Below, piece after piece: positions 27,961 to 59,093 of a stretch of 64,000 nt of DNA. The position numbers and the translations under genes were made by a program. Every line of letters starts with the position of its first letter. Position 1 is the stretch's first letter. The notes beneath the pieces are model-generated. The model saw nothing but the letters and a program-made list of their open reading frames with translations. It was not told the DNA's origin and ran no database searches. The stretch is from a virus. The stretch is taken from the UHGV virus genome UHGV-0023958, one strand, 5' to 3'.

Positions 27961-27968
27961 GGTAAAAT

Positions 27969-28186: not shown

Positions 28187-28858
28187 ATGGTTAAATTTAA
28201 TAAAAGTATAAATGAATATGATTATGTTTTGTCTTTTGATTTGGCAAAACATGACACAGGATATTCACTTTATAGCCTTTTCGATAAAACCGTAATTCTC
28301 ACTGGAATGATTATCGTAGAGGAAAAAGAAAATTATTGGTATGGACTTTATGAGGAGTTCGAGCATTTATTGCTCGAACTTTCCTCTAAGTTCGACAAAA
28401 AGAAAATTTTTGTTATAAAAGAAAAATTGCCGACACAAAACGGTCGGTTCTCAACGATATCTACTTTGCAAGCTTTGGCACAAGTTCACGCTATTTTGGA
28501 TATAGCTTGCGGTAATTGTGGTTTTGAATTTTATGATTATGACGGAATTCACTCCGTTTCTGTAAAAGCTTATTTTAAAGAACTTACTGGAATAGAAAAA
28601 CCAACAAAAGAAGATATTGCTAATAAAATATCCTTTTTATGCGCTGAGTATGACTTCTCTGGGCTTCCTTTGGATATTACGGATAGTTTGGCGGTTACGC
28701 TCACACTTGTCGATAGGAAGTGGAATAAGGACATTACAGAAGAGATTAAAAGCATAAATAAAGATATTAAAAAATTTAAATCTGAAAAAAAGAAGCAAGA
28801 ATTGCTCAATTATATAAATAAATTAAATTCATTAAAAATAATAAAGGAGGGTGACTGA
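28187..28858 (+). CDS. RuvC-like Holliday-junction resolvase
   Basis: N-terminal VLSFDLAKHDTGYSLY is like the RuvC motif IDPG..TGY. C-terminal LDITDSLAVTLTL is like D.ADALAIA. Confidence 0.45.
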   Translation: MVKFNKSINEYDYVLSFDLAKHDTGYSLYSLFDKTVILTGMIIVEEKENYWYGLYEEFEHLLLELSSKFDKKKIFVIKEKLPTQNGRFSTISTLQALAQVHAILDIACGNCGFEFYDYDGIHSVSVKAYFKELTGIEKPTKEDIANKISFLCAEYDFSGLPLDITDSLAVTLTLVDRKWNKDITEEIKSINKDIKKFKSEKKKQELLNYINKLNSLKIIKEGD

Positions 28859-28860
28859 AT

Positions 28861-29883: not shown

Positions 29884-29900
29884 AAAGGAGATTAAAAGTT

Positions 29901-30551
29901 ATGGAAGGCGTAGAGAATTTAAAAATTACTGATGTTTTGGATATTTGTGCAGATTATCTTGACAATCCGACAAAAAAAGAAAATATCGACAATTTTGAAA
30001 ATATGAAGCAAAAACTTGTTGTAAGGAAAATGTTGCCGCTTTTGTTTAAAGAAGATGTTTTAACAAAAGTTTTGGCATCTATTGAAAGTTATGGAGACGA
30101 ATTATACGGTTATTGCTCCGCGCTCGAACTTTCTTTAACTTTTAATGCTTTGATGGCGTATACCAACATCGATTTGATGATTGATTCAGCATTAAAAGAT
30201 TATGGTTATTACGATTTAATTTGGATGTCTGGTCTTGCAGATTATATTTTGGAATTCTGCAGAGACGATTATAACCATTTAAAAGAAATGGTTTATCAGA
30301 TGTTGAATTTCTCGAATTTGAAAGAATTATTTAGCGCACTTAATGGTGTTGATACCGAAGCATTGGATAGATTGACAAAAGAAGTCAATGAAACTAGAAC
30401 AAATATCGATCCATCGATTATTGCAAATTTGGCAAAAGTTGTTGATTTCGTAGATCCGATGACAGCCACGGTAAAAAATTCAATTCAAGAAAATGTTGCG
30501 AAAGCCGTTGAAGAATATAAAAAACAGCAAAAGAACGAAGAAAATAAATAA
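29901..30551 (+). CDS. acidic protein, possible tail assembly chaperone
   Basis: Its position directly upstream of the tape measure gene and its acidic composition. Confidence 0.35.
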   Translation: MEGVENLKITDVLDICADYLDNPTKKENIDNFENMKQKLVVRKMLPLLFKEDVLTKVLASIESYGDELYGYCSALELSLTFNALMAYTNIDLMIDSALKDYGYYDLIWMSGLADYILEFCRDDYNHLKEMVYQMLNFSNLKELFSALNGVDTEALDRLTKEVNETRTNIDPSIIANLAKVVDFVDPMTATVKNSIQENVAKAVEEYKKQQKNEENK

Positions 30552-30571
30552 TATAAGGAGGTAATTGTCCT

Positions 30572-31060
30572 ATGGCTTTATCATAGAAAGATGTTCACCT
30601 TGATTTAGGGTTATTAAAATCTTTAAATAAAAAAGATTTAGAAGACGCTTTAAAATATTTAACTGAAAATCTTGAAAAGATTTTTAAAAGTAATATAGAA
30701 GAAGTTTATAGGATAAATACTTCGGTTTTAAAAGGAAATTACGTTCCATTAGAAGAAATGTTATCTGCTGTTACAGTAGTATATAATATGCATCCTCCTT
30801 CTTGTAAAATATACATAGATGAAGATAAAATCACTTGGAAAGATTCTGAGGGCGAATCTGTACATAGTATTCCTTTAAACAAACAATATTACGATGGGTT
30901 TGTTACAAAAGAAGTTAAAACTTTAAATGAATATTGGATGTTGCCTATATCTTCAATACAAGAAGAATCTTGGATTATTGATAGAACTTATAAGGGAATA
31001 GTGGAATTTATTCAAAAAGAGTTTGTTCAATATATTTCTAACAAATTAAGGAGGAAATAA
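30572..31060 (+). CDS. possible second tail chaperone with an in-frame TAG at 30584
   Basis: AAGGAGG site and ATG at 30572, in frame with the ORF starting at 30758. Confidence 0.4.
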
Positions 31061-31062: not shown

Positions 31063-34000
31063 ATGGCGGATAAAAAGGAAATCGAAATTAAATTGAATTC
31101 AGATGATATTATCAAGCAAATAGAAAAAGGCATTCAAGGAGTTTCTTTTGATGTTAAACTTGACACTGATTTTGGTAAACATGAATATGTCGCTCTCGAT
31201 AAAAAAGTTTAGGAATATTTAAAAAGCAAAAATGCAGTTGTTATTTCAGCTACACAGTTTGCGCATTTAATGGAAACTGGTTATGCAAGTTTTGAAGCAG
31301 AAATAAATGACTTAGAGAAGAAAATTAAAACATCAACCGGTGAAGAAAAAACAAAATTAGAGCAAAGATTAAAAGATGTAAAGAAATTTAGCGAACAAAG
31401 CATGAATAAGGCACATGTTGGTACTGAAATCCATAAACTTCTTGAGTTATAGGAGAAGGGGTTTATTGATTTAAACAAAGAGAGAGAATCTTTAAATAAA
31501 ATCTATGCTCAAATGAATAAAGATAAAAACTCTTTGCAAGAATTAAGGACATTAGTAGGTTCATCATCTTTTGTTACTGATAATAATTTCAAAAAAGCTT
31601 TTAGAAGAGCGCAAGAAATGAATAAGATGAGGGTTTCTGCTGGTATGACTGGAGGTCAAGCAGAAACCGCCCGCGCTTTTGCTTATATTCACAATGGGAA
31701 ATTATATATTGCTGCTGGTGCAACAGATTGGACAAAAACTGGAGGTATGTATGATAAGATCGGAGATTATAAAACAACTTCAGAGTTTAATCCGGTTCAC
31801 AATTTAATTCAAACAGCCGTCAACGCCAATGCGATGCGCGCTGCTTCTGGAAATAAAACAAGAGATGTTAAGGGATAGATTGTTCATTTACCAGTTACAA
31901 AAGATAGAAACCTAAATCAATATACAGCTGGCATGGTGTATAATATATCTACTGGAAGCTGGGAAGAAAATATGGCTTTAATACAAGCTCTTACAGATGT
32001 ATATGAGGGTAAGGGCGATAGATCAAACATCAAAATACCAGGAAGATACACCGGTGGCGTTACAAGTGGAACATATACAGATGTAACTGGGGCAGAAAAA
32101 ACCGTAACATATTGGAATGGTAAAACTTTAAAGAAATGGCTAAAAAGCGATCAAAAAGATATGGAAAGTATGATCTCTTCATTATCTTTAGAGGATAAAA
32201 ATCATTTTTTGAGACTATTGTTTGGGCAAAGTAATGGAAATTTTTGGTATACAATTGGTTCTAGTAATGAGTTGAGAAAAAAATATAAATCTCAATATGA
32301 CTAGATTGTTGCGAATAAAGAAAATAGCAATTACTATCTTCAAGACATAGGTGGTTCTTGGGAAATCGGAGAAGATGGTAGTTGGAAATTTATTCCAAGA
32401 GAAAGTACTTCCGAAAGTAGATAGAAAGCATCTAAAAATATGTATAATAAAGATTGGTGGGAAATCGCATAGGAATAGGATGAAAATAGACTAATTAATG
32501 ATTTTTCTAATAACAGAAAAGATATAGATGAACAAACGGCGGCACAAATGGTCCCAGTTGCCTCTAGAAGATTAGCAAGAATTATAGATTATTCTAATAA
32601 AGTAGATAGAATCACTCAAGAAATAATTAAAAGAAATCCAGAGTTAGAAGGTAGGGATGTTGAAGAGGTTTCAAAAGAATTTTTAAAAGCTACAAATCCA
32701 AAAAATTTAGATAGATATCTAAGATCAAAGGAGCTTTTAGCAGCTTTCCCGAAGGAAGGAACAGATCAAGAAAAATATGAATTTGCATATCAAGGTTTAA
32801 GAGAAGATTCTAATGAGGAATCCAAACTTAAAAATATGCTTTATATAATTGAACAGGCTGGATTATTAGACAAAGTAAAGTCCGGATACATGGATTGGGA
32901 AAAATATTTTTTTAAACAACAAAAATCGATTCCTTATTCTGTTTTAACATCAATGGCTACGGGTAAAATGCTTGGATACGAAGAAGATGAGTTGAGGCCA
33001 GAGTACGCGGAACAGAGGTCTTAGATAAAAACATTAACATAGGTTGATGAAAAATATATCTCAGATATGAAGAATCAGATGGGAGATGAAATATTATCTA
33101 CAGCAGAAGACGAGATTGATTTTTTTAAAAGAAAGATATCCGAACTCGGTAAACAAAAAGGATTGGATGAAGACGCAATAAATTCTGCATTGGAGAAAGT
33201 CGATTATGCTGTTGAAGATACCGCTGCATAGAGTATTGAAGATGTTTAGAAATATATAAATAGCCAATATGATGCAAGTGAAATTGAATCTTTTGAAGCT
33301 TTACATGAAGCAATGGGTGTCGGGGAATTTTCTGGAGAAGAAACACCATTACAAGAAGAATTTGAAAATAGTCAAGATAATCTTTATCAACAAATTGATG
33401 AAAAACAAAAAGAATTCGAGGCAATTTATAGAACGCAAGTATAGGCATTTAATGATTATATTATGTATATGGCCAAAGATATGCTTTCTCTTGCCAATGA
33501 AATAAATGAAAATAGCAAAAAAAATAATAAAAAAAATCAATAGAAGAAGAAACAGACAATTGATCAAGAATCTAAAAAAATTGAAGAATCTTCTAAAGAA
33601 ATTGCACAAAATATTGTTAATAATGCTATAGATAACGCAGTCAAACAAACAGAAGAGGTTGCGCAAATATATACATCGTCAGCAAAAATTTCCAAAGAAG
33701 AAAATAAACCTGTTTTAAAAGACGGTGTTTATGTTTGGTCTAGAACTGGTAGAAGATTATCCGCAAAACAACTTTCTTCACGTGGTTTACAAAATAATCC
33801 TCCTTCTGGAAATATTCAATATTTTGGTGGCCCAATTCCAGTTTATCCAGCTGGTCAAGGTGGAGAATTAGATCCAAATAAAACATATAGAGAAACTGGT
33901 ATAACGGTTGATGCCGAAAATAAGATAGTAAGTAGAACTTTAAAAGAAGTTCAAAAGAGACAAGACGGTGGCAAGCGTGGATCGTCTCAGCTTGATGTAA

Positions 34001-37000
34001 TTAAACAGATCAAAGAAGACACTGGAAAAATTGTAAATATAATGGAATAGCAACCACCCGTTTCTGGTGGTGGTATGCCACCAGAGATTCCAACTACCGG
34101 TGGCGGAACTTCTGGCGGTAGTAAGAAAGGCAAATCTAAAGAAGATAAGCAAAAAGAAAAAGAAGATAAACAGGTTGAAGCTCAAAGAAAAAAAAATAAT
34201 CAAGAATACGCAAAAGCCTTAAAGACAGAATACGATTATCAATTGAAGATTGATGATGCAAGACGTAAGTCCAATATAACTTCCGGTAGAGAAAGAAAGT
34301 CTTAGCAAGAATTTATAAAAGTTGCACAATAGCAATTGAAAATAGCACAAGCAACAACTCAAGAAAGAAGAAAGGCTGTTACAGATAAAGATGCTGCGCT
34401 TATTGAATCTGGCTTACAAGGTCAGTTTTCTGTTAAACGTGCCGCAATATATACAAAAGATAAAGGTGCACGTAATATATTCGACCTTATGGGCGATGAT
34501 ATCAAGAGAGCTTTTTAGAGAATTACAGATTTTGGTGTGGCTGCTCGTATTTTGAATAAAGTTCAAAAAGAAATTGCTAATGTATATCAAAATATATTGA
34601 AGCTCAATGAAGCAATGACAGACATTCGTATTGTAACTGGTGCGAGTGTTGATGAAGCGAATTCTTTAATGACTAGTTATAATAAACTCGCAAAAGAACT
34701 TGGCACAACAACAACCGAGGTTGCAAAGTCTGCAAGCGAATGGATGCGTCAAGGCTATACTGCAAGCGAATCTGTTAATTTGATTACTTCTTCTGTAAAA
34801 CTTGCTCGTCTAGGCTTCATGGATATGAGTTCCGCGACAACATCGTTGACGGCTGTTCTTAAAGGTTTCAATCTTCAAGCTACTGAATCATCTAAAATTG
34901 TTGATAAGCTTACAAAACTCGATGCCGAATACGCGACAACAGCTGGCGATATCGCTAACGCATTATCAAGAACGGCTGCTGCCGCAAAAGCAGCCAATCT
35001 CGATCTCGATCAAACTGCAGCAATGCTTACTACAATTATTGATATTACGCAGCAAGATGCTGGTAGCGTTGGTAATGCTTTAAAGACGATTTTGTCAAGA
35101 TATGGAAATGTTAAAGCTGGCGTATTTGCTGGAATGGCAGAAGATGGGGAAGACGCATCTGAAAGCATAAACGATGTTGAAAAGGTGCTGAATGCGATTG
35201 GTATTCAGATCCGTTCGACTTCAACAGAAATGCGTGGTTTTGATGAAGTCCTCGATGATTTGGCTGAAAAATGGGATAATTTAAACGATGTCGAACAAAA
35301 CGCCGTTGCAACTGCTATGGCTGGTGTAAGACAGCGCAACCAATTTTTAGCCTTGATGCAAAACTACAACCAATATAAAGAAAGTTTGGAATCTTCTCGT
35401 ACATCTTCTGGTACGGCAGATGAAAAATATGCTGCGGTTATGGATAGCATTGCTACTTCTATGCAAAAAATACAAACTGCGTGGGAAAGTTTTACACAAA
35501 AACTTCAAGCGAGTGGATTTGTAAAAACATTCTTTAAGGCAATTGCAGGTGTTGTTGAAAATATTGATAAGATACTTCCAAATATTGTGGCGATGTTGAC
35601 GGCTATTGCTGGAAAACACCTTCCAACTATAGGAATGAAGGTCCAAGGTTTATTTGGCGGTGGAAGTCGTATGGGGAAAGGTGTCAGAGCTGCTTTCGGA
35701 CGAAGTGGATCATTTGAACAAGAAAGTTTAAGAGAACTTGCAGAATACAAAAAAGGACTTGGCTATAAAGATGAGGAACTTTCTGAAGCAGAAAGAAAAA
35801 TCCTTGGTTCTGGGCACCAAGAAAATACCGCAGATGATAAAACAGCATCCAATACCGATTAGATTAAATCTGATGTTTCTACTATAAAGGCTTATTTACA
35901 AAACAAAAAAGCAGGAGGTGCTACCACTCCGAATACTGGAGATGATACAAATCAAAACGTAGAGGCTGGTGGCAGTCAAAAAGTTTCTAATAAAAAAGGT
36001 AAAGCTAAAGGAACAAAATTTTTAAAAAAAGCTAGAATAGCCTCTGGTGTTACGACTGGAATAGCATCGGGACTTTCTTCTGGTATGACTGCTAATTATG
36101 GTGATTTTACAAGCACTGCTGACAAAATATTTACTGGTGCTGCTTCTGGTATATTTTCTGGTGTTGGAACCGCTCTTGCTGGTCCTATTGGGGGTATCAT
36201 AGGCACGGCGTTTGGATAGAAAATCGGTGAGATATTTTATGGACAATTTCACAAAGAAGAAATTGCTCGTCGCAAACGTGTTGATGAAGCTAAGAAGCAA
36301 CTTGAAGCTACTCAAAAGGTAGAATCTGCAATTACCTCCGCCGAAGAATTAATAAGCAAAGATAGAAGCGAATGGGGTTCGGAAGAGTATAAGCAAGAAA
36401 AAGAAGTAATTGACTAGATGCGACTTGGATTACAAACTTCAAGCACATTAGCAGAAAACTTTGCAAAACTTTCTGGTAAGCCTACCGATGTTTCTGATTG
36501 GCTTCTTAAGTTATCTTCTGATTTAACATAGCTTGATAAAAGCGTTATTGCAAATTATCGTGCGGCTCAAATTTTGACGGAAGCGCAAGAAACATATAAA
36601 GCTGGCGAAGAAGATCGTGCGGCGTTATATGATAAGCTTGGAAGTGCAGAAGCTTCCATGCTTAATCAAATTCAGAACATAGATTCTGCTTCTTCGGAGT
36701 ATCTTGAAAAACATAAAGAATATGAGAGCAAATACGGGAGGACAGTTGAATCTGGTATTGCTTCAATGCAACAAGCGCAAATGCAATTAGATGCGTTTAC
36801 TGATGCGTTGCACGAAGGATATATGCAAGCCGCATTTTATTCTTCTGGGGTTTCTCAAATGTCTTCGACGGATATCGCCGGGGCGAGTCTCGATAGAGTT
36901 GTTGCCGAGGTCGCTCGTGCTTGGGCGGCAAGTGATGCTACTGCTTTAGTGTTTGCTAATGGAATGCTTTTGGATAGTGCAAGAAAATAGATTGTAGCGT

Positions 37001-39387
37001 ATTTAAAAACACAATCTGATTTTACGTCATTAACAAAATCTCCTGGTGGAAGTTTCCGAGAAATATTAGATGCTAGAGATGATATTGGAGATTATTTAAA
37101 TAAAACTGGTAATGATTATACCAAATTAAAAAATATAGTCAATCAACAAGATTTTAAGAAAATAAGAGAATTTTTTGGATATGATTCTAAGGATACAACA
37201 AAAGATTCTTATATTAAAGATATAATTGATAAAATCAATAAAGCTGATCCAACAAATATTGAATTGATTGCGCATGGATTAAACATGACTGTTGAAGAAG
37301 CAGAAAAACTCAAAGATGTTATAGGAACAATAACCCTTTCTGATATTTTAAACGGAGCGAACAAACTTTTAGATAAGTTTGACGAATTAAATACGATTCT
37401 TGGAGAGATTAGCGATAATGATATTTTATCTCCAGATACAATGAATAAAATAGTCAAGAATTTTCCAAATTTATTAAAAGGAACCGATGAAAGTGGAAAT
37501 GTTACTATATCAAGAGATAACATTATAAGAAATCTTACAAAGTAGATTACAGATCCAAATGGTACTTACGCAACTGGATATATTGGTAAAGTGGCAACAG
37601 GAGCAAAAACCGAATCTAAATACTGGGATTTATTTAAAGATGTTGCTGATTAGTATTTTACCGGAGATACGCTTAAATAGATAATGAATTATAGCAATTT
37701 CGAAGGTGCGGAATCTATAATGATGAGACCGGAGAATAAGTAGGCATTGTAGAGATTTGGTGAAATAGTTGCGACTTCAACAGGGATTATTGATTAGCAA
37801 GAAAGAGCTAGAAATACATTAATTGAAGCGGAAAACAAATCTTTGGAAAAACAAATCGATAATTTACAATCCATTAAAGATTCAATTGGAGATATCAATA
37901 AACAAAGAGAAAAAGAGCTTAATTTAATAAAGGCTCGCGATGCGCTTGAAAATGCGAAAAAAGAAAAGAAGCTTGTTTATCGTGCCGGTATTGGATTTGT
38001 TGCTACGTCAGACTCTTCTGCAATATAGGAGGCTCAAAAGAAAGTTGATGATTTGCAAAATCAACAAACTCAAGAAGATTTACAATATCAAATAGATTAG
38101 CTTAATCAACAAAAAGCAATATTAGAGGCGATTAAGAATGATCCCAATATGGAGAGCTTAAAAAATACTGCGGAAATTATAAAAGATGAATTGATGTAGA
38201 AAACGCCAGGTGGTATTCTTGGGCTATTAAAAAATTTAGATCCAGAAACTTTTTCTGATAATGTTCGAGACGGCATTGTGAAAAGTATTACAGAAAAAAC
38301 GCTAGCCGTTGGGCAAGATACATACAGAAACATAAAGTTTTCGTTAGACACTTTGTTATAGGATTATAAAGATTTTTATGATACAAAAAATTATGAAGGA
38401 AGTGGACAATCTGTTCAATCTATTTTAGAAGATCCGTCAAATATTTATTTTTCTCGCGTTTCAAATTCAATAAAAGAAAAACAAAGTGCTATAGAAAGTA
38501 AGAAAAAAGAGCTAGATAATTTAAAAGAGAAGTATTTTTCTGGCGATAATAAATCGTTATTAGGAAGTTATGGCGGAGCAATTGAAAATATACAAAATTA
38601 TTATAAAGAAAAATATGGAACAGATGATTATTAGGATGTGTCAAAGTTAAAATTTAACAAAGAGGGTATTTTGTTAGATTTAGAAAATGCTTCTGGTGAT
38701 TATCATGAAAATTATTTTACAATGGTCAAATACACAAATGAGGCGGTATCCGATGATTCTTTTACCGATAATAAACATCGAAAATATAAAAAATCACCCG
38801 GTAAATCTTGGGAAAGCTTGGGTAAATCATGGAACGATATTGTAGAAAATGATTTGTTATAGCCGGGAGATTTCGTTTTAGTAGATTTAAAAGGAAATAA
38901 ACTCGCCTATGTTGGTGTTGATAAAAAATTATATTGGGTACAAACTAAAAAGCCGAAAGATTAGAGTTATGGTGGTTATGGCGATGTTAATGACACAACA
39001 AAAGGAAATAACCCCGATATAGATTATTCTAATATGCGAGCCAAAGGTGATTATAATTATCAAGGTGGCAACGTTCTCATTAACGAACTTGGTACAGAAG
39101 CTATTGTAACACCACAGGGTACGCTTACATCACTTCCTTCTCATTCTGGTATTGTTCCTGCCGATCTCACAAAGAATTTGTTTGCTCTTGGCGAGATTGC
39201 TCCAAATCTTATTGCGACTCTTCGTAATCAGATGCCAAATGTTTCTAAATCGAATTCTACTAGCAATGATAATTCTACGAATATCGGAACTGTTTATGCA
39301 ACATTTAATGCAGATAGCGGATTTGATATGAACAGATTTATGATCGACTTGCGCTCTGCCGCTGGCAACACAAGACACAACAACTAA
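31063..39387 (+). CDS. tail tape measure protein, 2,774 aa, a single frame containing 35 TAG codons
   Basis: Frame 1 runs continuously from ATG 31063 to TAA 39385-39387 with no TAA or TGA. The twelve ORF-track pieces are all in the same frame and are separated only by TAG. The segment 34537-35862 carries the tape-measure core pattern (…TEVAKSASEWMRQGYTASESVNLITSSVKLARLGF…) and Gly-rich hydrophobic stretches. Confidence 0.75.
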
Positions 39388-40900: not shown

Positions 40901-41737
40901 ATGTTATATTTAGATTATGCGAAGCCCGTTGAAGGTGGTTATATACTTAACTTTTTCGCTGATAAAGTTGAAGATATGGAAGCTATAACTGGCGGAAAAG
41001 AATTTGTTACAAAAAACGGCACGAATTACGGCGTTCCCCTTAAAGGTTCTACTGTCGTAATAACTGCTCCCGATAAAGAAAAGAAGACGTTTATTCTTGA
41101 TGAAAATGGCGAATGGAATGAAGGCGGATTAAACCCGAATGAGTTTTACACGAAGGAAGCTGCTGACGAAAAATTTATGGAAAAGGTAGTTAACATTAAC
41201 CTCTCCCCTGATACTGCTACACGAGGCACTTTGACAGAAGAATAGTTAGCTACCTTGATGAAAGACGATAATAATTATATCACTCTTAACAAAGAAATCT
41301 ATCGGTTAGCAGACAAGCAATACACCACAGAAATTATCTCCTATGTCAATACAGGTGTGGGTAGTAATATAATTTATATCACTGTTTCTACAAGAGCTTG
41401 GACTTTGGTTGTAGGGGAGAGGCCAAGTACGGTTTATAAACACGAGCTTACCCTCGTTGATAAAGATAATCAACACATAGAGATATCATTGATTAACAAT
41501 TGGAAGTTCGAATATGACGATCAGAATTTACGTGAGTTGGTGGGTGGTGGCACGTACTCAACTGTTGGACGTTCTGATATTAGCTTTGACGGTTCAGAGT
41601 TAGGTTTATACAATTTTTTTAGTATAGACGGTGCTACTGTAGATGGTTATGCTTATTATATTAAAACAGACGGAACAATAGGTATACAAGAGTTAAGTAC
41701 AGTACGCGTTGATAGTGACTTGGTGACGGACTTTTAA
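40901..41737 (+). CDS. distal tail protein paralog B with an in-frame TAG at 41243
   Basis: AAGGGGG site. The ORF-track pieces at 40901 and 41255 share frame 2. Confidence 0.45.
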
Positions 41738-42064
41738 CATTTAAACCTCATATCCCGCTGGTGAAAAAGACGCTACGGTGCATCTGGTGTGATAACTGGC
41801 GGAACCGCCACTTTAAGTGATGGTACGAGTGTACCGATAACTATAACTACCGCCGAAGCATAATTCGGCATAAACACTTTATCTCCCTTTCCCCCAATTT
41901 GAGAGGGGAGGAATAATAAATAAAATTTAGGTTTTATTATACAGCCCAGTTTTTGTTCGGTTTTCTGTAAAAAAATCGAACACCAATAAGTTTGGGTGTG
42001 GCGAGTGAGATACCTCCCGCCCGCCACAACTCAATATAAAAAATAAAAGAGGAGGCAAGAGATT

Positions 42065-45000
42065 ATGGCAGTTTTTAAACCGACAAATTGTTCGCCGTAT
42101 TTAACATCTTTTGATATTACATATTTGAATGAAGGACCAATTTATTTTCAATGTAAAATAGATACGTCAAACACAAATATTGACGGATATGCTATAACTG
42201 TTTATGATAGTGATAATCATAAAATTTTTCCGCATAATGGAAACGCAGTCGATAATATATCATATATCAAAGATCTTCATTATGATACAACGAAGATTGG
42301 ATCGATTATTTCTGATGATGGAATTTCTGATTTAAACACTGGTTTAAACGGAAGTTATTTAAAAATTCCTTTTGTTGTAAACAATGGTTAGAATAGTTAT
42401 CTAACAAACACAACGAGAAAAAATGTTGTTGTGTATAATAAAAAAACAGACGGAAGTTATGAAATAAAAGATAATTCTGGAAATATCATTAAATTATATA
42501 ACGGAAATCAGTATAAATGGACAATAACTTTATATTAGCTCGGACAAGACGCTGTTGATAATAAGAAATCTAGGCCAGAAGAAATTAAATATTATGATAT
42601 GACAGTGGCTTCTGGCAAAATTCTTGGATCTACCAATGAAAGAATCCAAAGCTATCCGAGCGATCAAATTTATAATGATTACTTTTTACAATTATATAGT
42701 GCTCCAGTTGTTAATGTTGGTCCTGATTTTTAGATTACAAAAATTACAGGAGATGTAAAACAAGTTGGAACGAGGGTTAGAATTAAAGATTACGATTCGT
42801 ATCTCGGACACATGTATTTACAAACTGGACAAGATGGTTTGTCTGAGAAAAATTTAGATATATCAAATGTTTTCCAAGTTTTTAAAATGAGTAATAACCC
42901 AGATGATTTGGGCACAAAAGACAAAGTTGATTTTTGCATTAGTCAAAAATACTTTGTGCCAAAGTATTTCCAAGAATCTAAATCTGATTCATCGGCAGCA
43001 TATTTATCTCAAACATTTGTTATTGCAAACGTCACTGGTTCAAGTGCCTCTGAAACTTTGGAAAAAGTGAAAGATGTTTATAATAAGCCGTTTTTTGAAA
43101 ACACTGAAACTTTGTATGGTTTACCTTCATCTAATCAATATTACTCTAAAATTTTTAGTGGTTATGACGGAGACAATTCTCCCCCGGTTATATTTGGTTA
43201 GTCAAGAGTTTTATTGAATACGGAAAATAATAACAACGAATTAGATGAAAGTAGTGGGGCCGTAACTGGTACTAAGGATTATGGACCGAATGGAGGTAGT
43301 TCTAAGTTTAACGGTATATGGATTCCAAAAACACCAACTGTTGAAAAGATTGCAGAACATTAGAATGAAGGTAAATACACTGGAACAGATTATAAAATAA
43401 CAATTCAATGGTATCGTTCTTCTGATGCTGATACATGGGGAGAAATCACAAACAAAGTCGTTTTAGATACCAACAATTTCAACAGTGATTATGATTCGTT
43501 CGCAGGTCAAAATCTTCAAGCATATACTTCTGAGCAAGAAGGAGAGCAAGTTTCAACCGGTACTATTAATGATACGCTTATAAAATTTAACAACGAAGAA
43601 CCTGTTGAAATTTATTCAAATAATTCTTACGAACATAACTATGGATTTATTTATAAAAACAACATGGACATAACTGCATGGTTAGCGTCTATAACTGGTG
43701 AGACAACGCATGTACTAACTTATACATACATTTGTAAAAACACTTGGAGGGTAACTGGAAAGCCAAAGTGGCGCGAAGGCGATAATTTTAATGATTGGAT
43801 TGGAAATCCTATTTATTTTATAGAGAAAGATAATAATATATTTCAAGACAAGCATCAATATCAAATTTTAGCATATCGTAATCCAAGTAACTCTTACTTA
43901 CAAGCGGAGGTTAAGTTTAATTTAAATGAACAATATACTACTTATTATAGTGGGAATTATGGTTTAGATTGTTTTAATCCACCAGAGGAGTGGGAGAAGT
44001 GTGAAATACGCGTTGTTTGGAAAAATGATGCCGCAACAGATAAAAACTTAGATCTCCCAGAAGTTAATGATACAATTCAGTTTTTTATATATGATATAAC
44101 AACTGGAATTATTAATTTTATTTCTCCGTCTACAGCCGTGTCTGTTGGAGATAAAATATTCAATAAAGATAATTCTTCTTCGAATGTTGTGTTGTTAAAT
44201 AAAACTGTTTGGGCGATTGGACAAGAGCAAGATGTTTCTACATATAAATATAAAAACAATGAAGGTCGGTTGGTAGACTATAATTATTATCCGATTTTAA
44301 ACTTCAAAACAAACGATTTATATTCAATTAAAACATTCTTCCGTTCGAGCAGCGAAAATCAATTTAGTTTATATGAACGTCCAACTGTCGATTTAGAATT
44401 ATACGGCGTTTCAGGCGGTGCAAAGATAGAAATTAATGCTGCTGATAAAACATGCAAAACCTATGAGAGAAGTATTTTTGCATAGGCTATTTATAATCAA
44501 ACCAATTTGGTTCAGTGGAGAAATTATCAATGGTTTCTTTACGATGTTCCAAATATTTACGAAAACGCCGATGCGTATAAAACAGCAGCTGGATCTGCTT
44601 TGACAAAATATTTAAATCCGAATGATCTTATTTTGCAATCAGAAGTTGGTTATGATAAAGAGATAAAATATACGTTTTATGGTTTGGCAGAAGAACACCA
44701 TTGGTATATTATATCACTTGTTTTGACAGATCAATACGGAACAATTATTACAAAGAAAATTGCTGTTTATACTGATTTTACAGTGGAATTAGAACAAGAT
44801 AAAGATTGGGTTAATTATGGTCTTCGGTGTGATTTAACCGGCGTCGATATGTGGTTTGAAGATAAATACGGTTATATATATCCGAATTTGGGTGATAGAA
44901 ATTATTTGATAGAAACCAACAACAAATATGCAAACAATCCAAATGGCGTTACGTATTCTGATAGTGTTATGAATATATCTGATAACTCAGAAGGTGTTTT

Positions 45001-46201
45001 ATATGATAGCGTATATAGCAATGACGGATTAAGTTCTTGGAATTCCCCTTCTAAACAAAATTTAACTTTTGATCAGAATAAAGGTATCGAATTTACGACG
45101 AGGGTTACAATAGACAGTTATCAATACTCGGCAGAATTTCTAAACGTTGTTATTAATACAGATGGCGGAAACACAAAGAACTTGGTTTTGAAACCAGAAG
45201 ATTTATATATAAGTTCTAATGATTGGCCAGAAGGTTATAAAGTTGGTTTCCCGAATTATGAGTGCTATAAGATTGGTAATTATGCTATCGGGGAAAATCC
45301 GAACGTATATGTTTATGGGAATGTAACAACCGATTTGTTCCCTAATTCTGATTCTTATAATTCTTGTATTAAATATAATAATTACTATATATCTTATATT
45401 CCTTCGAACGTAGTTCCCCTTGGAGCTAATAAACCTTCTATAAATATTCCAAATTCTTGGTATTTTATCAATTATGATGAAGAAAATAGTGTTAAAGATA
45501 TAATAAGTGATAAACCGATAAAGATAAATAAGATGATTTATGCTTTAGATGATCCCGATGGGCTATAGAACAAAGATGTATTTTATAATTTGCCAATATT
45601 TATAAGAAACGATTTATCTTTAAGCGGGAAAACAATAGAAAATTTACCTGATGGAACTAAGGTTTATAGTCTTTGGATGGATAAAAACGATGAGATAATT
45701 ATACCAACAATAGTTGCTATAAATGAATCTGCTAATACTTTTTACTATTGTTATAGAAAAGTCAATAATCATCAAGAGGATATATCAGATAATATCTGGG
45801 AAGATACAAAAGAAAACGGAGAAGATAATATTTGGGAAGACGAAATTACAGTAGAAGATACTCAATCTGACCATTTAAAAAATAAAGATGGCTCGTTGAA
45901 TACGATTAGAAATCGTTTGTATGGCAAAGTTTTATATTTTTATGTTCAGTGGAGCGGAAAAGAAAACGACGATATCACATACGGCATTGTTGGAAATGTA
46001 TCACAAAGAGTAATAGATGTTGATTCTGAATTGTCGTTGACTTCTGTTAATCCAGTTGAGAACAGGGTAATTACAACTGCTTTAAATTCAAAATTAGATA
46101 CAACAACGTTATCTGATTAGAACACATTTGGTATATTTAAATGTTATACAGATAAATTTGGAATATTAACTTTTGTTACTGGGGAGGGTGAAAATGGCTA
46201 A
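42065..46201 (+). CDS. large tail/baseplate protein, about 1,378 aa, with 8 in-frame TAG codons
   Basis: AAGAGGAGG site. Frame 2 is open from 42065 to TAA at 46199 with TAGs only at 42389, 42536, 42731, 43199, 43361, 44483, 45566 and 46118. Confidence 0.5.
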
Positions 46202-47789
46202 TATTAAGATAGGTATAAGTAGCGGTTATAAACCACAAGATTTTGGTGATCCTTCAAGAAAATCAAGAGTTTCTTATTTATATGCTTATAACAAAGACGA
46301 ATCTTCTCCGTCAAATAGAAATTTTCCAGCGATTTTTTCAAAGAAAGCATATAATGATATTATGAACGACGAAAATAAAGATTTTTTATTGTTTGCGTTG
46401 AACTATACAGCTGAAAAAGTCAACGGTTTGACAATGCCGCTCCCAGATGGAATTGTTTCAGAAGGATTAAAAACGTTTCCGCAAAGGTCTATTTATAAAA
46501 GAGAAGTGTGGAGAGATGATGACAACCAGGTGCATTATGAAAAAATATTACACCCGGTTGTTTTACAAAACAATGTTTCTCGTGTTATAGACTATAATGT
46601 AACAACAAATAGAAATTATGAATATATAATTTATTTGACAGATCAAAGAGGAAGTCAAACTATCCAAAGAGAAATACATTTCCCAATAACAACAAAGTGG
46701 GATTATTGGTCTATTTCTGAATTACATAGAACAAGCGAATAGAATGTTTATACAACATCCGAAAATGAAACGTGGTTATTTAAATTTAATGTTGAACCGG
46801 GGGAACAACAGCAGAATGTTTCTAAATCGCAACAAGATACGCTTGGTAAATACCCTGCTTTTTCTTATGGAAAAAAGAATTATACCACAAGTTCTGTTTC
46901 TTGTTTGCTTGGCTCCGAAATGCTTCCCTTTGACTTTTTAACAACGAATTATGTTCTTGTAAGAAACGAAGATGGTAGCGTTTCATGGGGTTTGGCGCAA
47001 GATGTCAGTGAGGTATATGGCGGATATACAGAATCTCGTTGGAAGAAACTATTAGATCAATGCGGAATGAACGAACGTGTTGTTAATATTTTTGACACAA
47101 AAATCACATCTAATGACAGTGTTGATATGTTGAATGAGTGGAAGAAATTGTGCAATTCTGGAAACCCGAAGTTGTATAAAAATTCCAAAGGTCAGTCGTT
47201 TATTATACAGATAACCGAATTTTCAAATTCAATTAATGAATCTTGGGATAAACAGCCGATAACTATCAATTTTAGTTGGACAGAAATTGCAGATGCAAGC
47301 GATGCAAGAATAATACAAACAACCGAATTCACAACCGATACAAGCGGAAGTGTTTCTGGTGGAGGAGATGAGCCAGTGATGGATTATAATATTCTTTCTA
47401 ATAAACCACAGATAAACGGTGTTGAGTTGGTTGGAAATAAAACGGATAAAGATTTATATCTGGAAGCAGAAGGTAATATTAAATCTATTTCTGGAACAAG
47501 TCCTTCTGTAAAATTAGACAACAACATCACTTATAATCTTGGTTCGATTAACGGATTAACAACAACATTTGGTAGTATTAATGACGAATACTATAAAAAT
47601 CGTCAGTGTTCACAGGCAGAAATTAACTTTACTGCCGCAAGTAATTTCACATATACACCTCCAGAAAATACAACAATTATAGGTGGAGATGTTGAGGGTG
47701 GAAAACTCAGTGCTAAAAAGGGCACTTCTTACAACATAGGATTTGGATATGTTGATAATGTTATGTATGCCGTTTGTGGCATTAGATAA
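46194..47789 (+). CDS. baseplate/tail protein with one in-frame TAG at 46740
   Basis: GGGGAGGGTGA site. Frame 0 is open to TAA at 47787. Confidence 0.5.
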
Positions 47790-47811
47790 AATATAAAAAG
47801 GAGAGGTAAAT

Positions 47812-49062
47812 ATGATTTATAATTCATCTTAGTTTTCTTTACAAGGAAGCGGAGAGGTAATTTCTATTACCTCTCCTTATTTATTTGATCAATATTATAA
47901 TTTTTATTATATAGAAGATTATATTAAAAACAAACACATATAGCCGAGATTTAAAATATATGTTTTAAATGCCGATGAAACCGAGAGATATGAAATTCCA
48001 AATGGAGATATTATCAGCGGTAGTTATTCCGAAAACTATCAAAATGGTCAGAGGAGAACGTTGTCCTTTCAATTAAATAATAATAATGGAGAATATACGC
48101 CGTCAATTAATCATTTTTGGACTGGGCAGAAATTTTCTTTTTATATTGGATTCAATATGAATAACGATGAAAATAGTGTTATTTGGTTTAGAAAAGGAAT
48201 CTATTCTTGCCAAAATCAAAGCGTTGATAATTCATCTGATACGAAAACGGTTAGTATAGAAACAGCTGATAAATTTTCTGTTTTGGAAGGGAAAAGCGGA
48301 ACATTGGAGTATTCTTATACAATTAATGTAGGAGAGGATATTGAAGAAGTTATAAACAACATATTAAACACGGACAATGGTTCTGGTTTTATGTTGGATT
48401 CAAAAGGCATTGTTTATCATTCTTTATTTAAAGATAAAAAGGTAATTTCTCAAATATCAGAATCTGCTGGCGCAACTTACGGTTCAATTATTTTAAAACT
48501 TGCAGAAATGCTTTCTGCAGAAGTTTTTTATAATGTCAACGGTAATTTGACGTTAATTCCGAAACAAGAAGTTATCAACGATTCCGACAAGCCGATTTTG
48601 TTTTCTTTTAATGCAGACAACGGGGATTTGATGACACATAATTACAGTTTTTCTTTCGAAGATATTGTAAACAAGGTTATTGTTATCGGTTCAAATGTTA
48701 ATGGAAGCACGTGTAGAGCGACGGCTGTCAACAACTCCGCAGATTCTCCAATCAGTGTATCAAGAATTGGCTATAGAACAGGATCAATAATTAATGATTC
48801 TTCGATTAATTCAGATTATCTTGCGCAGGAAAGAGCTGATTATGAATTAAGAAAAGTAAGTGTTGCTAAAACAAGTGTAAGTAACACGGCGTTATTGAAT
48901 CCTTTAATAGAAGTAAACAATTTAATAGAAATTACCGATAATTTTTACGGTATAGAAAACGAAAAATTCCTTGTTCAATCGATTTCTTTTTCGTTAGATT
49001 ATAGCGGAACGATGTCGATTTCAAGTTCAAATATAAACAATCTTTCATTTACGAATAGATAA
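47812..49062 (+). CDS. tail/baseplate protein. The N-terminal extension contains TAGs at 47830 and 47941 and an embedded perfect hairpin.
   Basis: AAAAGGAGAGGTAAAT followed by ATG. Frame 1 stays open for 83 codons up to the ORF starting at 48061. The alternative is a TTG start at 48061 with a GAGGAGA site. Confidence 0.4.
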
Positions 49063-49072
49063 GGAGGGACGT

Positions 49073-50764
49073 ATGAATAAGACAGAACAAGCAAATGGCT
49101 TTTTAAATATAATACGCTCCATTATCAAAGAGGAACAAGATAAGCGCGACAGGGTTGAAATTTGTCAAATTGATAGCGTAAATGAAGATGGGACAGTAAA
49201 TATAAAAATGCTTTCAGATTTTGAAACTGTTAGAATAATTCCAAATATTTCAAATCAATCGATATATAGTTTTAAAAATGGAGATTTGGCTATTATTTAT
49301 ATGATTCAAAATCAATTATCGAACGCGTTTATAATTGCTAAATGCGGTCCGACAAATGAAAGTTTAAGAATATCTTCGTCGGATGGTGATACAACTGGCG
49401 GAGGCACTGTTATACAAAATATAACATATCAAAGCGGAACTACTAGCGGCGTAACATCTGTCAATGGTAAAACGGGCGAGGTTACTATTACTGCATAGGA
49501 TCTTGGAGCAATTACTGAAATTCCAGATGTAACACAAATACAATCAACAGATATTTCTTCGCTAGTTTATGATACAACAAATGGTGCCGCTTTTGAAATA
49601 AATAACAGTATTATCTTTTCAGATGGAACAAAAAATAACCCACTTTTAAAATTCAATTTGCCCATTATCGGCATCAATGGTATTAGTATAGATAAATCTA
49701 ATGGTAAAAATGTTCTGGAAATTTCAGGAAAAGATTTGCAAGATTTAATTAATTCTATATCCTTGACTAGTGGTACGAATAATGGAACTTTAAAATTAAC
49801 CGTTGGTACAACTATTGTTGATAATATTAAAGTTACGGGTTTTGATAAAAAGCAAGACCAGCTTAGCGAGAGCCAATTAAATGCTGTTAATTCTGGAATA
49901 ACTTCAGAAAAAGTAACCACTTATGATGAATACCAGTCTTAGATTAATTCTAAATACACAAAACCCGATGGCGGTATTCCGAAGTCAGATTTGTCTTCGG
50001 ATGTTCAAAGTTCTTTGGTGAAAGCCGATTCTGCCTTACAAACCCATCAGAAAATTACAACTGGTAGTGCGAACGGAACGATTGCCGTTGATGGGACTGA
50101 TGTTTCTGTTAAAGGATTAGGTTCTCTTGCGTACAAAAATTCTTTGACAAAAACAGATGTTGGACTTGGAAACGTTGATAATACATCGGATGAAGCCAAA
50201 CCAATTTCTACCGCAACACAAACAGCCTTAGATGGGAAAGTAAATACTACAACAACGGTAAACGGTCACGCGTTATCTTCTAATGTTACTATTACACAAT
50301 CGGATGTCGGTTTGGGTAATGTTATTAACGCAGGGCAAGATCCAACACCAACATCCGATTCTATAAATTATGTTACTTCTGGTGGTGTTAAAAGTTATGT
50401 TGACAACGGGTTAAACAAAAAAGCGGATTTACTAGTTAATGAATCAACGGTTACTACTGTATAGTCTGGCCGCTTGTATGAGTTTACTGATATTCACAAT
50501 CCATTTAGTTTATCTATCAATATGGATACATTTAAAACATCTAATGATGTTTCGCAGATTTATTTCACGGCAGCAGCTAATTTTGATGTTGTCCTTAATG
50601 TTTCTTCTGGTGTTAGAATAATCGGAGATGGTGTTAATGCGAGTACCAAAAAAATTTCTTGTGTTAAAGGCAATTCGTATTATTTTACTTTTGGTTATAC
50701 AAAAAAAGGTGTTTCTATTGTAAGTAATATTGATGCAAATTGGAGTGAGATAGCAACGGTATAA
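49073..50764 (+). CDS. tail fibre protein with 3 in-frame TAG codons
   Basis: AAGGAGGGAC site. It contains the conserved tail-fibre motif DVGLGNVDNTSDEAKPIS (present twice). TAGs at 49496, 49940 and 50462; TAA stop. Confidence 0.55.
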
Positions 50765-56240: not shown

Positions 56241-57050
56241 ATGATACCTAATAAAACAAAAGCATCTGAATATAGGGTGCGGACATTAGATAGAAATGAT
56301 TTAAATGAGAAAGGAACGATTTATATTGGTTAGGGCGGTACTTCTACTATTGATAAAGTTGAAAATATTTCCAATGTAGCGGCAATTAGTAAGCCAGATG
56401 ATGATTTAAACAAATCTGGTTATTATGCTTTAACGCTTGGAGGAAATGCAAATCAAGATGGAATTTGGGGCAGATTTTTACATGAGGTAGATTGCCAAAT
56501 AACACCAACTTTATTTCAATTAAACGAAGGAGCGCCATCTCTTCATAATCCTTATAAATATGTAATTCGCGGTGGGTATAAGTCGTTAAATATTAAAAAA
56601 AGTATATTTGATTCAACACTTACATATATAATGGATTATAATTCAAATTTATCATCTTTTTCTTCTGTTGATTAGAAAATATTTGCAAAATTATCTATGA
56701 GGGGATTTGTAGAATATGATACTCCGTTTGAAGTATATTCTTCTTTTGTTGCCTCTCAGAAGACTGGAAGTTCTTGGGAGTTATATCCTTTGAATTTTTC
56801 ACCGATTAATATTACAAAATTAAACGATAATTATATGCGAAATTTCCAAAGCATTGTTTTTTGTTCAAATGATACACCGTGGCAAGAAACTGCGGATGGT
56901 TTTCAATTAAACCTTCATGCAATCGGTATGGGAAATACATTAGAAGAGCAAAAATTATATTATTAGAAAAATGGCACTGGTGAAATTCTAACTGCTAATC
57001 TATCAAATATTTCATAGATTAGAGTAACTCAAATGTCTATTATTTTTTAA
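56241..57050 (+). CDS. hypothetical protein with 4 in-frame TAG codons
   Basis: AAAGGAG site. Frame 0 is open to TAA at 57048, with TAGs at 56331, 56673, 56964 and 57015. The end abuts a terminator. Confidence 0.4.
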
Positions 57051-57731: not shown

Positions 57732-58529
57732 ATGTCATTTCGTGAATTTTATAATGAAGATTGTTTTATAAATATGAAAGGGTTTAAAGATAAATCAATA
57801 AACCTTATTTTAACTTCTCCGTTTTATAATACGAATAAAAAAGCAGGGAAGAAAAATACGCTTGAAAACACAGAAATCAAAAAAGGAACATATTCTTATA
57901 TTAGATATGACGAACACGTCGATAATATGACGGACGAAGAATATGAAGATTTTACAAAAAGATTATTTAATGAATTTAATAGGATTGTTGTAAACAACGG
58001 TGTTGTTCTTTATAATCTTTCTTATAGCAACGATAATCCAGCAAATTTGTTTTCATTAGTTAATATGATTTGCGAAGAAACGAATTGGATGATTGCCGAT
58101 GTTATTGTTTGGAAAAAGAAAAGTGCTTTGCCGAATAATTGCTCTCCAAATCGCCTAACTCGTATCTTTGAGTTTATATTTGTTTTTTGCAGAAAAGGCG
58201 AAGAAAAAACTTTTTATGTAAATAAAAGGGTGATTTCATTACGCGCAACAGGGCAGAAATCGTATGAAAATATCTTTAATTTTGTCGAAGCGAAGAACAA
58301 TGACGGTCCGTGTCCGTTGAATAAAGCGACGTATTCAACTGATTTGTGCAAACAGTTACTTCGAATTTATGCAAATCCAGAAGACAAAGATTTTGTTGTT
58401 TACGATCCTTTTATGGGAACAGGGACAACTTTGGTTGCATGCAAGGAAATGGATATAAATTGTTTTGGTTGTGAAATTTCTAAAAAACAATGCGAGTGGA
58501 CGCAAAATCGCTTGACAAATCAAAACTAA
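57732..58529 (+). CDS. DNA methyltransferase, amino-MTase of N4-C/N6-A type with beta-class motif order
   Basis: Motif IV LILTSPFYN lies upstream of motif I DPFMGTGTT. Confidence 0.7.
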   Translation: MSFREFYNEDCFINMKGFKDKSINLILTSPFYNTNKKAGKKNTLENTEIKKGTYSYIRYDEHVDNMTDEEYEDFTKRLFNEFNRIVVNNGVVLYNLSYSNDNPANLFSLVNMICEETNWMIADVIVWKKKSALPNNCSPNRLTRIFEFIFVFCRKGEEKTFYVNKRVISLRATGQKSYENIFNFVEAKNNDGPCPLNKATYSTDLCKQLLRIYANPEDKDFVVYDPFMGTGTTLVACKEMDINCFGCEISKKQCEWTQNRLTNQN

Positions 58530-58540
58530 TGTGATATAAT
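58512..58540 (+). promoter_or_regulatory. sigma-A type promoter (TTGACA, 17-nt spacer, TGaTATAAT) for the suppressor tRNA
   Basis: -35 at 58512-58517 and -10 at 58535-58540; about 70 nt upstream of the tRNA. Confidence 0.5.
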
Positions 58541-58562
58541 ATATATGTTATAAACGCGTGAT

Positions 58563-58580
58563 GTCAAATCTAGATTTGAC
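58563..58580 (+). promoter_or_regulatory. perfect 18-bp palindrome GTCAAATCTAGATTTGAC between the promoter and the tRNA; candidate operator or leader hairpin
   Basis: Nine-plus-nine perfect inverted repeat. Confidence 0.4.
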
Positions 58581-58610
58581 AAAACGTGATTATATAAAAT
58601 TACTGTACAG

Positions 58611-58685
58611 TGGGGAATAGCATAACGGTAGTGCGGTGCTCTCTAAAAGCACTCTGTGTCGGTTCGAGCCCGACTTCCCCCGCCA
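58611..58685 (+). tRNA. amber suppressor tRNA, anticodon CUA (reads UAG), with Gln-like identity elements
   Basis: A manual cloverleaf gives a 7-bp acceptor with a T1·C72 mismatch. U8; D stem GCAT/GTGC with G18G19; anticodon stem GTGCT/AGCAC with loop CT-CTA-AA (U33, CUA at 58643-58645, A37); 5-nt variable loop; T arm GTCGG-TTCGAGC-CCGAC; G73; encoded CCA. G2-C71, G3-C70, G10, G73 and a weak 1:72 pair are the E. coli tRNA-Gln identity set. Confidence 0.8.
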
Positions 58686-58718: not shown

Positions 58719-59093
58719 ATGTCGTAGATACGTGAATCTTGTTATTTTTATACTTAGAAGGCAGCATCTTATGTCGGGAGTAGAGATTATGAAATCAAAT
58801 ACGATCCCGGCGTTTTCGTTGTATTTTCTGAAGATTTTTATCCCTTGGACGATGACAAATACCAATCGTGTTTATGCAGGAGTTTGAATTTGGCGAACGA
58901 ATATAACACAAATGTTTCTTATTCAGACAAGGAAGATTTGGCCAAAGCAATTTATTTCGATTTATATCAGAAACCAGATGAAACCATTTTTGTCTGCGAA
59001 AATGATGCAATTGCCGATGTGGCAAACAGGTATTTTGGCGAAGATAGTATTATAAACATTAAAAAGGTAATTGAGGAATTTGAAGAAAAATGA
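58719..59093 (+). CDS. hypothetical protein with TAG at codons 3 and 13, directly downstream of the suppressor tRNA
   Basis: GGAGG site 8 nt upstream of ATG 58719. Frame 0 is open to TGA at 59091. A TTG start at 58845 is the shorter alternative. Confidence 0.35.

Follow-up and report, generated by a model that had tools for sequence, protein, structure and literature searches.

The stretch of viral genome UHGV-0023958 analysed here (64,000 nucleotides (nt), hereafter the window) carries an amber suppressor tRNA gene with the anticodon CUA and 66 in-frame TAG codons spread over 17 genes. In the phage clade to which it belongs TAG is a sense codon equivalent to CAA and CAG, and in the window it is never a terminator. 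From sequence comparisons we consider it likely, with a probability of about 0.85, that the CUA tRNA is a functional elongator that decodes UAG as glutamine (code 15) during infection, allowing the 17 genes and their 66 TAGs to be translated. An initial annotation, made from the letters of this DNA, had proposed a phage-encoded amber suppressor, dozens of in-frame TAGs and glutamine as their meaning. These proposals hold: the tRNA lies on a genome with portal, tape-measure and NrdD genes whose relatives are IMG/VR viral contigs, the TAGs are as numerous as counted above, and codon exchange with those relatives, which shows Gln at 24 of 41 variable TAG sites, supports the codon meaning independently of the tRNA.

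Read-through of TAG, and not of TGA, yields open reading frames (ORFs) of 2,775 and 1,379 codons. The frame of the tail tape-measure gene contains 35 TAG, no TAA and no TGA codons, and its two other frames contain 115 and 270 TAA and TGA codons. The 50 complete genes of the window terminate in TAA (41) or TGA (9), never in TAG. The window needs translation table 15 because otherwise the tape-measure gene and 16 others shatter into fragments.

The meaning of TAG was examined by aligning the window to 16 related IMG/VR contigs and reading the codon opposite every window TAG. TAG itself was found 165 times, CAG 46 times, CAA 44 times and any other codon no more than 7 times; TAA and TGA never occurred opposite a window TAG in these contigs. 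When each of the 41 variable sites is counted once, Gln occurs at 24, Lys at 7, Ser at 6, Glu at 5, Tyr at 4 and Trp at 1. At other sites Gln makes up 1.5% of replacement residues, and against this background the binomial p for the TAG sites is about 1e-33, the counts over relatives being phylogenetically non-independent though limited to one per site. Of 106 sites at which a relative has TAG, the window has CAA or CAG in 60 and TGG in 2. Among the replacement profiles compared, that of CAA fits TAG best (log-likelihood -133.7), followed by CAG (-147.0), AAA (-177.1) and TGG (-209.5). Proximity by mutation is no explanation, since half of the TAG exchanges are with CAA, two mutations distant. 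TAGs close to gene ends (5693 and 18132) also align with CAG or CAA in relatives; that at 5693, near the end of the ORF at 4946-5716, is a sense codon because it is CAG in one relative. Since TAG exchanges mainly with CAA and CAG and never with TAA or TGA, it stands for glutamine in this clade. A distant standard-code homologue from Thomasclavelia phage TR-TP1 (22-27% identity) offers merely six aligned TAG positions (two Gln, two Glu, one Lys and one Ala), too weak to count.

ARAGORN accepts the fold of only one tRNA in the window, placing it at 58611-58685 (+) and giving its anticodon as CTA. The Rfam model RF00005 matches 58611-58682 over its full length (1-71) with 52.8 bits (gathering score 29, E=1.7e-8), and its alignment marks 1:72 as the single non-standard pair. 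The acceptor stem reads as a U1.C72 mismatch followed by G2:C71, G3:C70, G4:C69, G5:C68, A6:U67 and A7:U66, with G73 as discriminator. The body has G10, G18G19, a 5-base-pair (bp) anticodon stem, the anticodon loop C32-U33-CUA-A37-A38, a 5-nt variable loop and the T-loop TTCGAGC, and the CCA end is encoded. Both programs and the sequence reading thus bear out the 75-nt canonical cloverleaf with U33 and A37 beside CUA that the initial annotation described, and every element it named is present (TTCGAGC, G18G19, CCA, G73, G2-C71, G3-C70, G10 and a non-Watson-Crick 1:72, here U1.C72). The further marks of a canonical elongator cloverleaf (U8, A14, G18G19, U33, a purine at 37, T54-T55-C56 and A58) are found as well. 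The single-sequence minimum free energy fold is unremarkable (z=-1.16), which is usual for tRNAs.

The suppressor tRNA gene is real and conserved. It is found at 96-100% identity, as three alleles, in 11 related viral contigs, one allele having a C/T difference in the D-loop. In the most divergent relative (L311), whose flanks are about 80% identical, the T-stem pair 52:62 has changed from G:C to A:U, a compensatory change. Elsewhere, a 462-kilobase (kb) uncultured phage (LR756500.1; L376 1466-1543) contains 40 nt that are 85% identical to the 3' half of the suppressor, including TTCCCCCGCCA. ARAGORN calls no tRNA at that place, and the stretch may be a degenerate or split tRNA.

The initial annotation took the acceptor-stem elements as those by which glutaminyl-tRNA synthetase (GlnRS) identifies tRNA-Gln. 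The elements are there, but they do not single out Gln. In a panel of 687 tRNAs found by ARAGORN in 121 bacterial loci, G73, G2:C71, G3:C70 and G10 occur jointly in 65 of 84 tRNA-Gln, in 10 of 14 tRNA-Trp and in none of the 18 other isotypes; because they are present together in both, they define a Gln-or-Trp class and not Gln alone. G73, G2-C71, G3-C70 and G4-C69 are also determinants for bacterial tryptophanyl-tRNA synthetase (TrpRS) (PMC9976931). A 61-nt degenerate, anticodon-agnostic pattern common to the suppressor and the four E. coli tRNA-Gln genes selected 144 tRNAs in GTDB genomes. All 144 were tRNA-Gln (UUG 109, CUG 35) and all had U1:A72 and G73, where the suppressor has C72. The same pattern selected 112 Gln, 10 CUA (all from the present clade), 2 Asn and 1 Lys tRNAs in IMG/VR. 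A U1.U72 mismatch is seen in a few phage tRNA-Gln(UUG) genes (3 of the 125 viral matches), so the suppressor is not alone in combining a Gln-type acceptor stem with an unpaired 1:72.

The rest of the molecule is mixed. A C35-to-U change in the Trp loop CU-CCA-AA gives its anticodon loop, CU-CUA-AA, and its D-loop (AUAACGGUAG) and GUGU variable region agree with those of Bacillota tRNA-Trp. Its Gln-like features are U1 and the C11:G24 pair, and the CCA anticodon and A1:U72 pair of tRNA-Trp are absent, being CUA and U.C here. A pattern built on the D-loop and anticodon loop as Trp-specific matched only Trp in the bacterial panel (19 of 19). Phage tRNAs for Thr, His, Asn and Gly have the compact D-arm of this pattern too, and the pattern was dropped as proof of Trp ancestry. 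Part of the Trp-likeness comes from this D-arm, generic among phage tRNAs, and does not prove descent from tRNA-Trp. Needleman-Wunsch pairwise identities with the panel failed to tell isotypes apart, free end gaps ranking Leu and Val high, and were set aside. The initial annotation had also suggested a comparison with host tRNA-Gln as the source of a captured, anticodon-mutated gene. The suppressor is not a recently captured host tRNA-Gln, since identity to its best tRNA-Gln matches is only about 65%, with the pattern-determined positions included in that figure. It reads as a diverged tRNA of the Gln/Trp identity class with a body leaning to Trp.

In the mechanism that we favour, the suppressor tRNA itself would be the agent that decodes UAG. 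Host RNA polymerase would transcribe it from a perfect sigma-70 promoter, a leader of about 64 nt with a hairpin would then be removed, and a host enzyme, most probably GlnRS, would charge the tRNA directly. Charging by GlnRS is favoured because U35, G73, G2:C71, G3:C70, G10:C25 and an open 1:72 match the E. coli GlnRS identity set. GlnRS unpairs 1:72 upon binding. The change of C35 to U would remove the main TrpRS determinant, and U1.C72 would remove the A1-U72 pair of tRNA-Trp and supply both U1 and an already-open first pair. C35 is a major determinant for TrpRS. There is a precedent in E. coli, where tRNA-Trp(CUA), known as Su7, is no longer recognised by TrpRS and is instead a substrate of GlnRS (PMC2965240; PMC9976931), because GlnRS has U35 as a major determinant and its acceptor elements in common with TrpRS. 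The genes with TAG would be translated only after the suppressor has accumulated enough to outcompete the host release factor RF1; gating of late genes by a code switch is a model proposed for recoded phages (bioRxiv 10.1101/2021.08.26.457843; PMC9523058; PMC10607447).

Several points weigh against glutamine decoding by this tRNA. With the anticodon masked, profile hidden Markov models (HMMs) give the suppressor 34.4 bits for Trp and 16.5 bits for Gln; members score 62-84 bits on their own profile (Gln members 65-82), and cross-isotype noise reaches 38-53 bits, 38 on the Trp profile. Home-made covariance models, for which the panels were small and partly pattern-selected (30 sequences for Gln, only 10 for Trp), also place it nearer Trp. 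On the Trp model it scores 66.7 bits (phAss-1 Trp 71.7, best non-member E. coli Gln 53.9). On the Gln model it scores 55.4 bits, below genuine tRNA-Gln at 70-100 bits (E. coli Gln 99.7-100.2, phAss-1 Gln(TTG) 70.7, best non-member phAss-1 Trp 50.8). On neither Gln-specific model does the suppressor score like a member of the tRNA-Gln family. Elongator tRNAs do not usually have a mismatch at 1:72, and their binding to EF-Tu might be weakened by one. Agreement with the late-gene model is partial, since TAG is missing from the head genes too. In many Bacillota there is no GlnRS, and Gln-tRNA is made by means of glutamyl-tRNA synthetase (GluRS) and an amidotransferase (PMC9976931); the present host looks Bacillota-like. 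The analysis covered about 85 kb of a genome of about 135-148 kb, and a further suppressor tRNA, release factor or synthetase could be encoded elsewhere in it.

The Trp-like body and G73 would suggest, at face value, that tryptophan is inserted at UAG as in a 'code 32'-like code. The Trp covariance score is close to that of a phage tRNA-Trp and 13 bits above the best non-Trp sequence, the HMMs and the anticodon loop point the same way, and Kienbeck et al. found 19.4% of suppressor tRNA (tRNA-Sup) genes in phages to be of Trp isotype (PMC10879173). The codons say otherwise. TAG and TGG differ by a single transition, yet just 1 of the 41 variable TAG sites shows Trp and, in the reverse direction, just 2 of 106 show TGG, and the replacement profile of TGG (Phe, Tyr, Arg, Cys) fits the TAG sites very poorly (-209.5 compared with -133.7 for CAA). 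The A1-U72 pair of bacterial tRNA-Trp is absent, the Trp-likeness is partly the compact D-arm common to phage tRNAs of several isotypes, and with loss of C35 the E. coli tRNA-Trp(CUA) loses its Trp identity (PMC9976931; PMC2965240). We regard tryptophan insertion as very improbable. Mixed decoding, in which UAG is read mostly as Gln with an appreciable share of Trp or Lys at sites that tolerate the mixture, would suit the chimeric Gln/Trp character of the tRNA and the rank of Lys as the second commonest residue at TAG sites (7 of 41). The Lys signal needs no special cause, because Gln-to-Lys exchange is conservative and common and AAG is one mutation from TAG; moreover, TAG is found where relatives conserve Gln, and G73 is not the Lys discriminator. 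Small stem changes do shift the mischarging of amber suppressors by GlnRS or LysRS (PMC2965240), and we allow mixed decoding a slim chance.

Alternatively, TAG may mean Gln while charging is indirect, through a non-discriminating GluRS and then GatCAB in a Bacillota-type host without GlnRS. The host indicators (ribosome-binding sites at 34 of 51 genes, sigma-70 promoters and the nearest phage homologues) and the retained U1 agree with this route, although some Bacillota do have GlnRS. Many such bacteria lack it, but the amidotransferase and GluRS2 depend on U1-A72, and for B. subtilis GluRS a modified U34 is the main element (PMC9976931), where the suppressor has U1.C72 and C34. The lack of both features makes the indirect route less attractive, and we judge it unlikely. 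A pyrrolysine (Pyl) tRNA, a pseudogene or an integration-site (attP) remnant was rejected as having next to no likelihood. The ARAGORN label 'tRNA-Pyl' is its default for any CTA anticodon, and no Pyl-related family was found among the window proteins scanned. tRNA-Pyl has neither G18G19 nor T-psi-C and has a 6-bp anticodon stem and a 3-nt variable loop; the present tRNA is canonical in all these respects. A tyrosine integrase gene is present in the window (28861-29883), but it lies 29 kb from the tRNA. A relic is at odds with a full-length gene behind a perfect promoter of its own, with the conservation and compensatory change of that gene, and with TAG sites that behave as Gln.

The reading of TAG as glutamine by means of a phage tRNA(CUA) is established elsewhere, by the survey of Borges et al. 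(bioRxiv 10.1101/2021.08.26.457843), by proteomic validation in crAss-like phages (PMC9523058) and in phAss-1 of the proposed genus Phassvirus (PMC10607447). The strategy is already well described; the present lineage is unrepresented among GenBank phages. It resembles the code-15 gut phages (crAss-like, Lak, Garnet/Amethyst/Agate/Topaz and phAss-1) in its phage CUA tRNA, in structural-gene TAGs that align with Gln, in never using TAG as a stop, in low G+C (about 33% here), in the absence of any synthetase seen, in a TAG-free integrase gene and TAG-free early genes, and in a likely standard-code host. Integrases of recoded phages are reported to avoid recoded stop codons (bioRxiv 10.1101/2021.08.26.457843). 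It differs in having no nucleotide match by megablast among 50,697 GenBank phage records, a portal only 24% identical to the nearest record, and a single tRNA in the window compared with arrays of 28-36. In phAss-1 the suppressor is unrelated in sequence, and TerL and the portal are recoded, whereas here the portal and head genes are TAG-free and the TAGs lie almost entirely in the tail module. The other phage CUA tRNAs examined, two in IMG/VR (L315 and L362) and that of phAss-1 (L273 15744-15820), have acceptor stems with G1:C72 and A73, with U1.G72, and with U1:A72 and C2:G71. The suppressor is unrelated to any of the three, so such tRNAs have had several independent origins.

Bacterial tRNA-Gln (E. 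coli glnU/V/W/X; supE is glnV with CUA) shares with the suppressor U1, G2:C71, G3:C70, G4:C69, G5:C68, G10:C25, C11:G24, G73, the 75-nt length without nucleotide 17 and the encoded CCA. In contrast, the suppressor has C72 in place of A72, and it differs from Gln in the anticodon loop, the D-loop and the variable region. E. coli Su7 (supU; tRNA-Trp with C35 changed to U, charged by GlnRS) has the same Trp-like body, CUA anticodon, G73, G2:C71 and G3:C70, and likewise gives UAG the meaning Gln. Su7 arose in the laboratory by point mutation and retains A1-U72, whereas the present gene is natural and diverged, has U1.C72, and matches Bacillota tRNA-Trp at only about 70-74% of positions. The theta-ribozyme-linked tRNA-Sup genes of Kienbeck et al. 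(2024), by isotype models 69% Gln and 19% Trp, are also amber suppressors of gut-type phages with Trp-isotype predictions (19.4%), but an encoded CCA, as found here, occurs in 4.5% of the theta-associated tRNAs (PMC10879173). No theta ribozyme was found 3' of the suppressor by Rfam 15, in which the presence of a theta model was not established, and the next ATG follows the tRNA after only 33 nt.

The point that goes beyond cataloguing is a suppressor body that appears to lean to Trp while the codon meaning is clearly Gln. A Trp-leaning body with a Gln codon meaning is to be expected because the identity sets of GlnRS and TrpRS overlap. Acceptor-stem 'Gln identity elements' and isotype scores alone do not reveal the amino acid inserted by a CUA suppressor, and 'TAG to Trp' codes should be inferred from isotype scores only with caution. 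It is possible, if rather doubtful, that the tRNA is a natural counterpart of Su7. In that case a Trp-derived scaffold with C35 changed to U and A1:U72 retuned to an open U1.C72 would be charged by the host glutaminyl system and not by TrpRS, constitutive-looking sigma-70 output would be modulated by the leader hairpin, and the switch would gate only the tail module and the downstream gene with TAG at codon 3. If true, the approximately 19% of phage tRNA-Sup genes with 'Trp isotype' need not mean a TAG-to-Trp code.

Table 1. Coordinates of the suppressor tRNA gene, the elements next to it, the TAG-bearing genes and the sigma-70-type sites of the window.
Feature	Position	Strand	Remarks
GIY-YIG homing-endonuclease-like gene	395..1621	+	4 TAG; PF01541
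ORF with 2 TAG	4946..5716	+	near-terminal TAG at 5693
Four single-TAG genes	within 16854..31060	+	16854-18179, 25310-25696, 25696-27396, 30572-31060
Tail tape-measure gene	31063..39387	+	2,774 codons, 35 TAG; PF10145 at 5.7e-32; TAGs align with CAA/CAG in relatives
Tail, baseplate and fibre genes with TAG	40901..50764	+	TAGs in brackets: 40901-41737 (1), 42065-46201 (8), 46194-47789 (1), 47812-49062 (2), 49073-50764 (3)
ORF with 4 TAG	56241..57050	+	TAG is 31% of its Gln-type codons; no assigned function
Sigma-70-type promoter of the tRNA	58512..58540	+	TTGACA-17-TATAAT, extended -10 TG; 12/12 match, ~70 nt upstream of tRNA
Leader hairpin	58549..58594	+	18 bp, -16.8 kcal/mol, z=-4.4; core 20-bp palindrome 58562-58581
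Amber suppressor tRNA	58611..58685	+	75 nt, anticodon CUA, encoded CCA, U1.C72, G73; ARAGORN and Rfam
ORF directly 3' of the tRNA	58719..59093	+	Shine-Dalgarno GGAGG 58706-58710; TAG at codons 3 and 13
Perfect sigma-70 sites	9270-9298, 58512-58540, 59583-59611		HNH endonuclease, tRNA and replication block, respectively
One-mismatch sigma-70 sites	50867-50895, 57081-57109		dUTPase/nrd block and replication block, respectively

The TAGs are unevenly distributed over the window (Table 1). As a share of Gln-type codons (TAG, CAA and CAG), TAG reaches 18% in the tape-measure-to-fibre block at 31063-50764 and 22-25% in 395-1621 and 56241-59093, and is 0-3% elsewhere. TAG accounts for 2 of 162 Gln-type codons in the head genes, 0 of 54 in the nrd genes and 0 of 43 in the replication genes (chi-square p=1.7e-11 across modules); the blocks compared were the tail at 31063-50764 and those at 1834-16626 and 50961-64000. 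This module-specific use fits gating by a code switch, but for the tail module only and not for the head genes. The tyrosine integrase gene (PF00589) is TAG-free although it is inside the structural region, and its presence hints at a temperate lifestyle. The GIY-YIG gene carries four TAGs and is thus adapted to the code of the phage. The codon-5 TAG of 30572-31060 (position 30584) is kept in 8 of 8 relatives and the codon-7 TAG of 47812-49062 (position 47830) in 12 of 12. Such extreme N-terminal TAGs are perfectly conserved and many internal TAGs exchange with CAA and CAG; the N-terminal TAGs may form an early translational gate.

The promoter hexamers of the tRNA are invariant in all relatives, including L311. 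Sigma-70 sites with at most one mismatch number 8 in the window, compared with 1.28 expected, and 3 of them are perfect. The family has a common extended -10 motif, (A/G)TGATATAAT, and precedes TAG-free genes or the tRNA, with none within the tail block. This arrangement suggests that the tRNA would be made by host RNA polymerase together with early and middle genes. A second TTGACA, at 58575, was rejected as a promoter as it has no -10 element at a workable spacing.

None of 200 shuffled sequences was as stable as the leader hairpin. Within the clade its stems are conserved and its loop varies (CTAG, CTAA or CTCG); L311 has one compensatory change in the outer stem, and some changes are uncompensated. 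The hairpin could act in processing, as an attenuator or as an operator. The palindrome occurs once in the window, and this single copy, with two uncompensated left-arm changes in L311, led us to reject a repressor operator; an RNA hairpin fits somewhat better.

The CCA end of the tRNA is only 33 nt from the next start codon, and the codon-3 and codon-13 TAGs of the ORF that begins there are kept in 4 of 4 relatives. L311 keeps the codon-3 TAG despite changes in the neighbouring codons. The product of this ORF has no Pfam family and a single marginal PHROG match that is itself without a function. An Rfam scan around the tRNA (E<=10) returned nothing beyond the tRNA and three chance-level matches, and among its neighbours PHROG and Pfam scans detected neither a release factor nor a synthetase nor a lysis gene. 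The tail-restricted TAGs, perfect early-type promoter and structured leader make a compact system in which to test the timing of late genes by a code switch.

The window is part of a tailed phage genome of about 130-150 kb, with all its genes on the plus strand and a G+C content of about 33%. PHROG and Pfam matches include portal, virion, tape-measure and tail proteins, dUTPase, NrdD/NrdG, a DNA methyltransferase, a Sak4-like protein, a DnaB-like helicase, the tyrosine integrase and three homing-endonuclease-like genes. The last are at 395-1621, 9394-10890 and 53574-54527; one HNH gene has its own perfect promoter and another HNH gene lies between nrdD and nrdG. IMG/VR contains at least 16 related contigs, of 94-148 kb. 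Strong ribosome-binding sites (GGAGG or AGGAG) precede 34 of 51 genes. The nearest homologues are from Thomasclavelia, Enterococcus and Clostridium phages; the product of 47812-49062 shares 27% identity with a Thomasclavelia phage TR-TP1 tail protein, and NrdD shares 45% with its counterpart in Clostridium phage c-st. From the strength of the ribosome-binding sites, the sigma-70-consensus promoters and these homologues we infer a host of Bacillota type rather than Bacteroidota. The window adds an undescribed lineage, probably infecting Bacillota, to the phages with TAG recoded to Gln. The clade also carries a tRNA-Thr(UGU) (L260 4932-5007, and in L262, L265 and L268-L271), which in these relatives is about 2.7 kb upstream of the point corresponding to the window start and is unrelated in sequence to the CUA tRNA.

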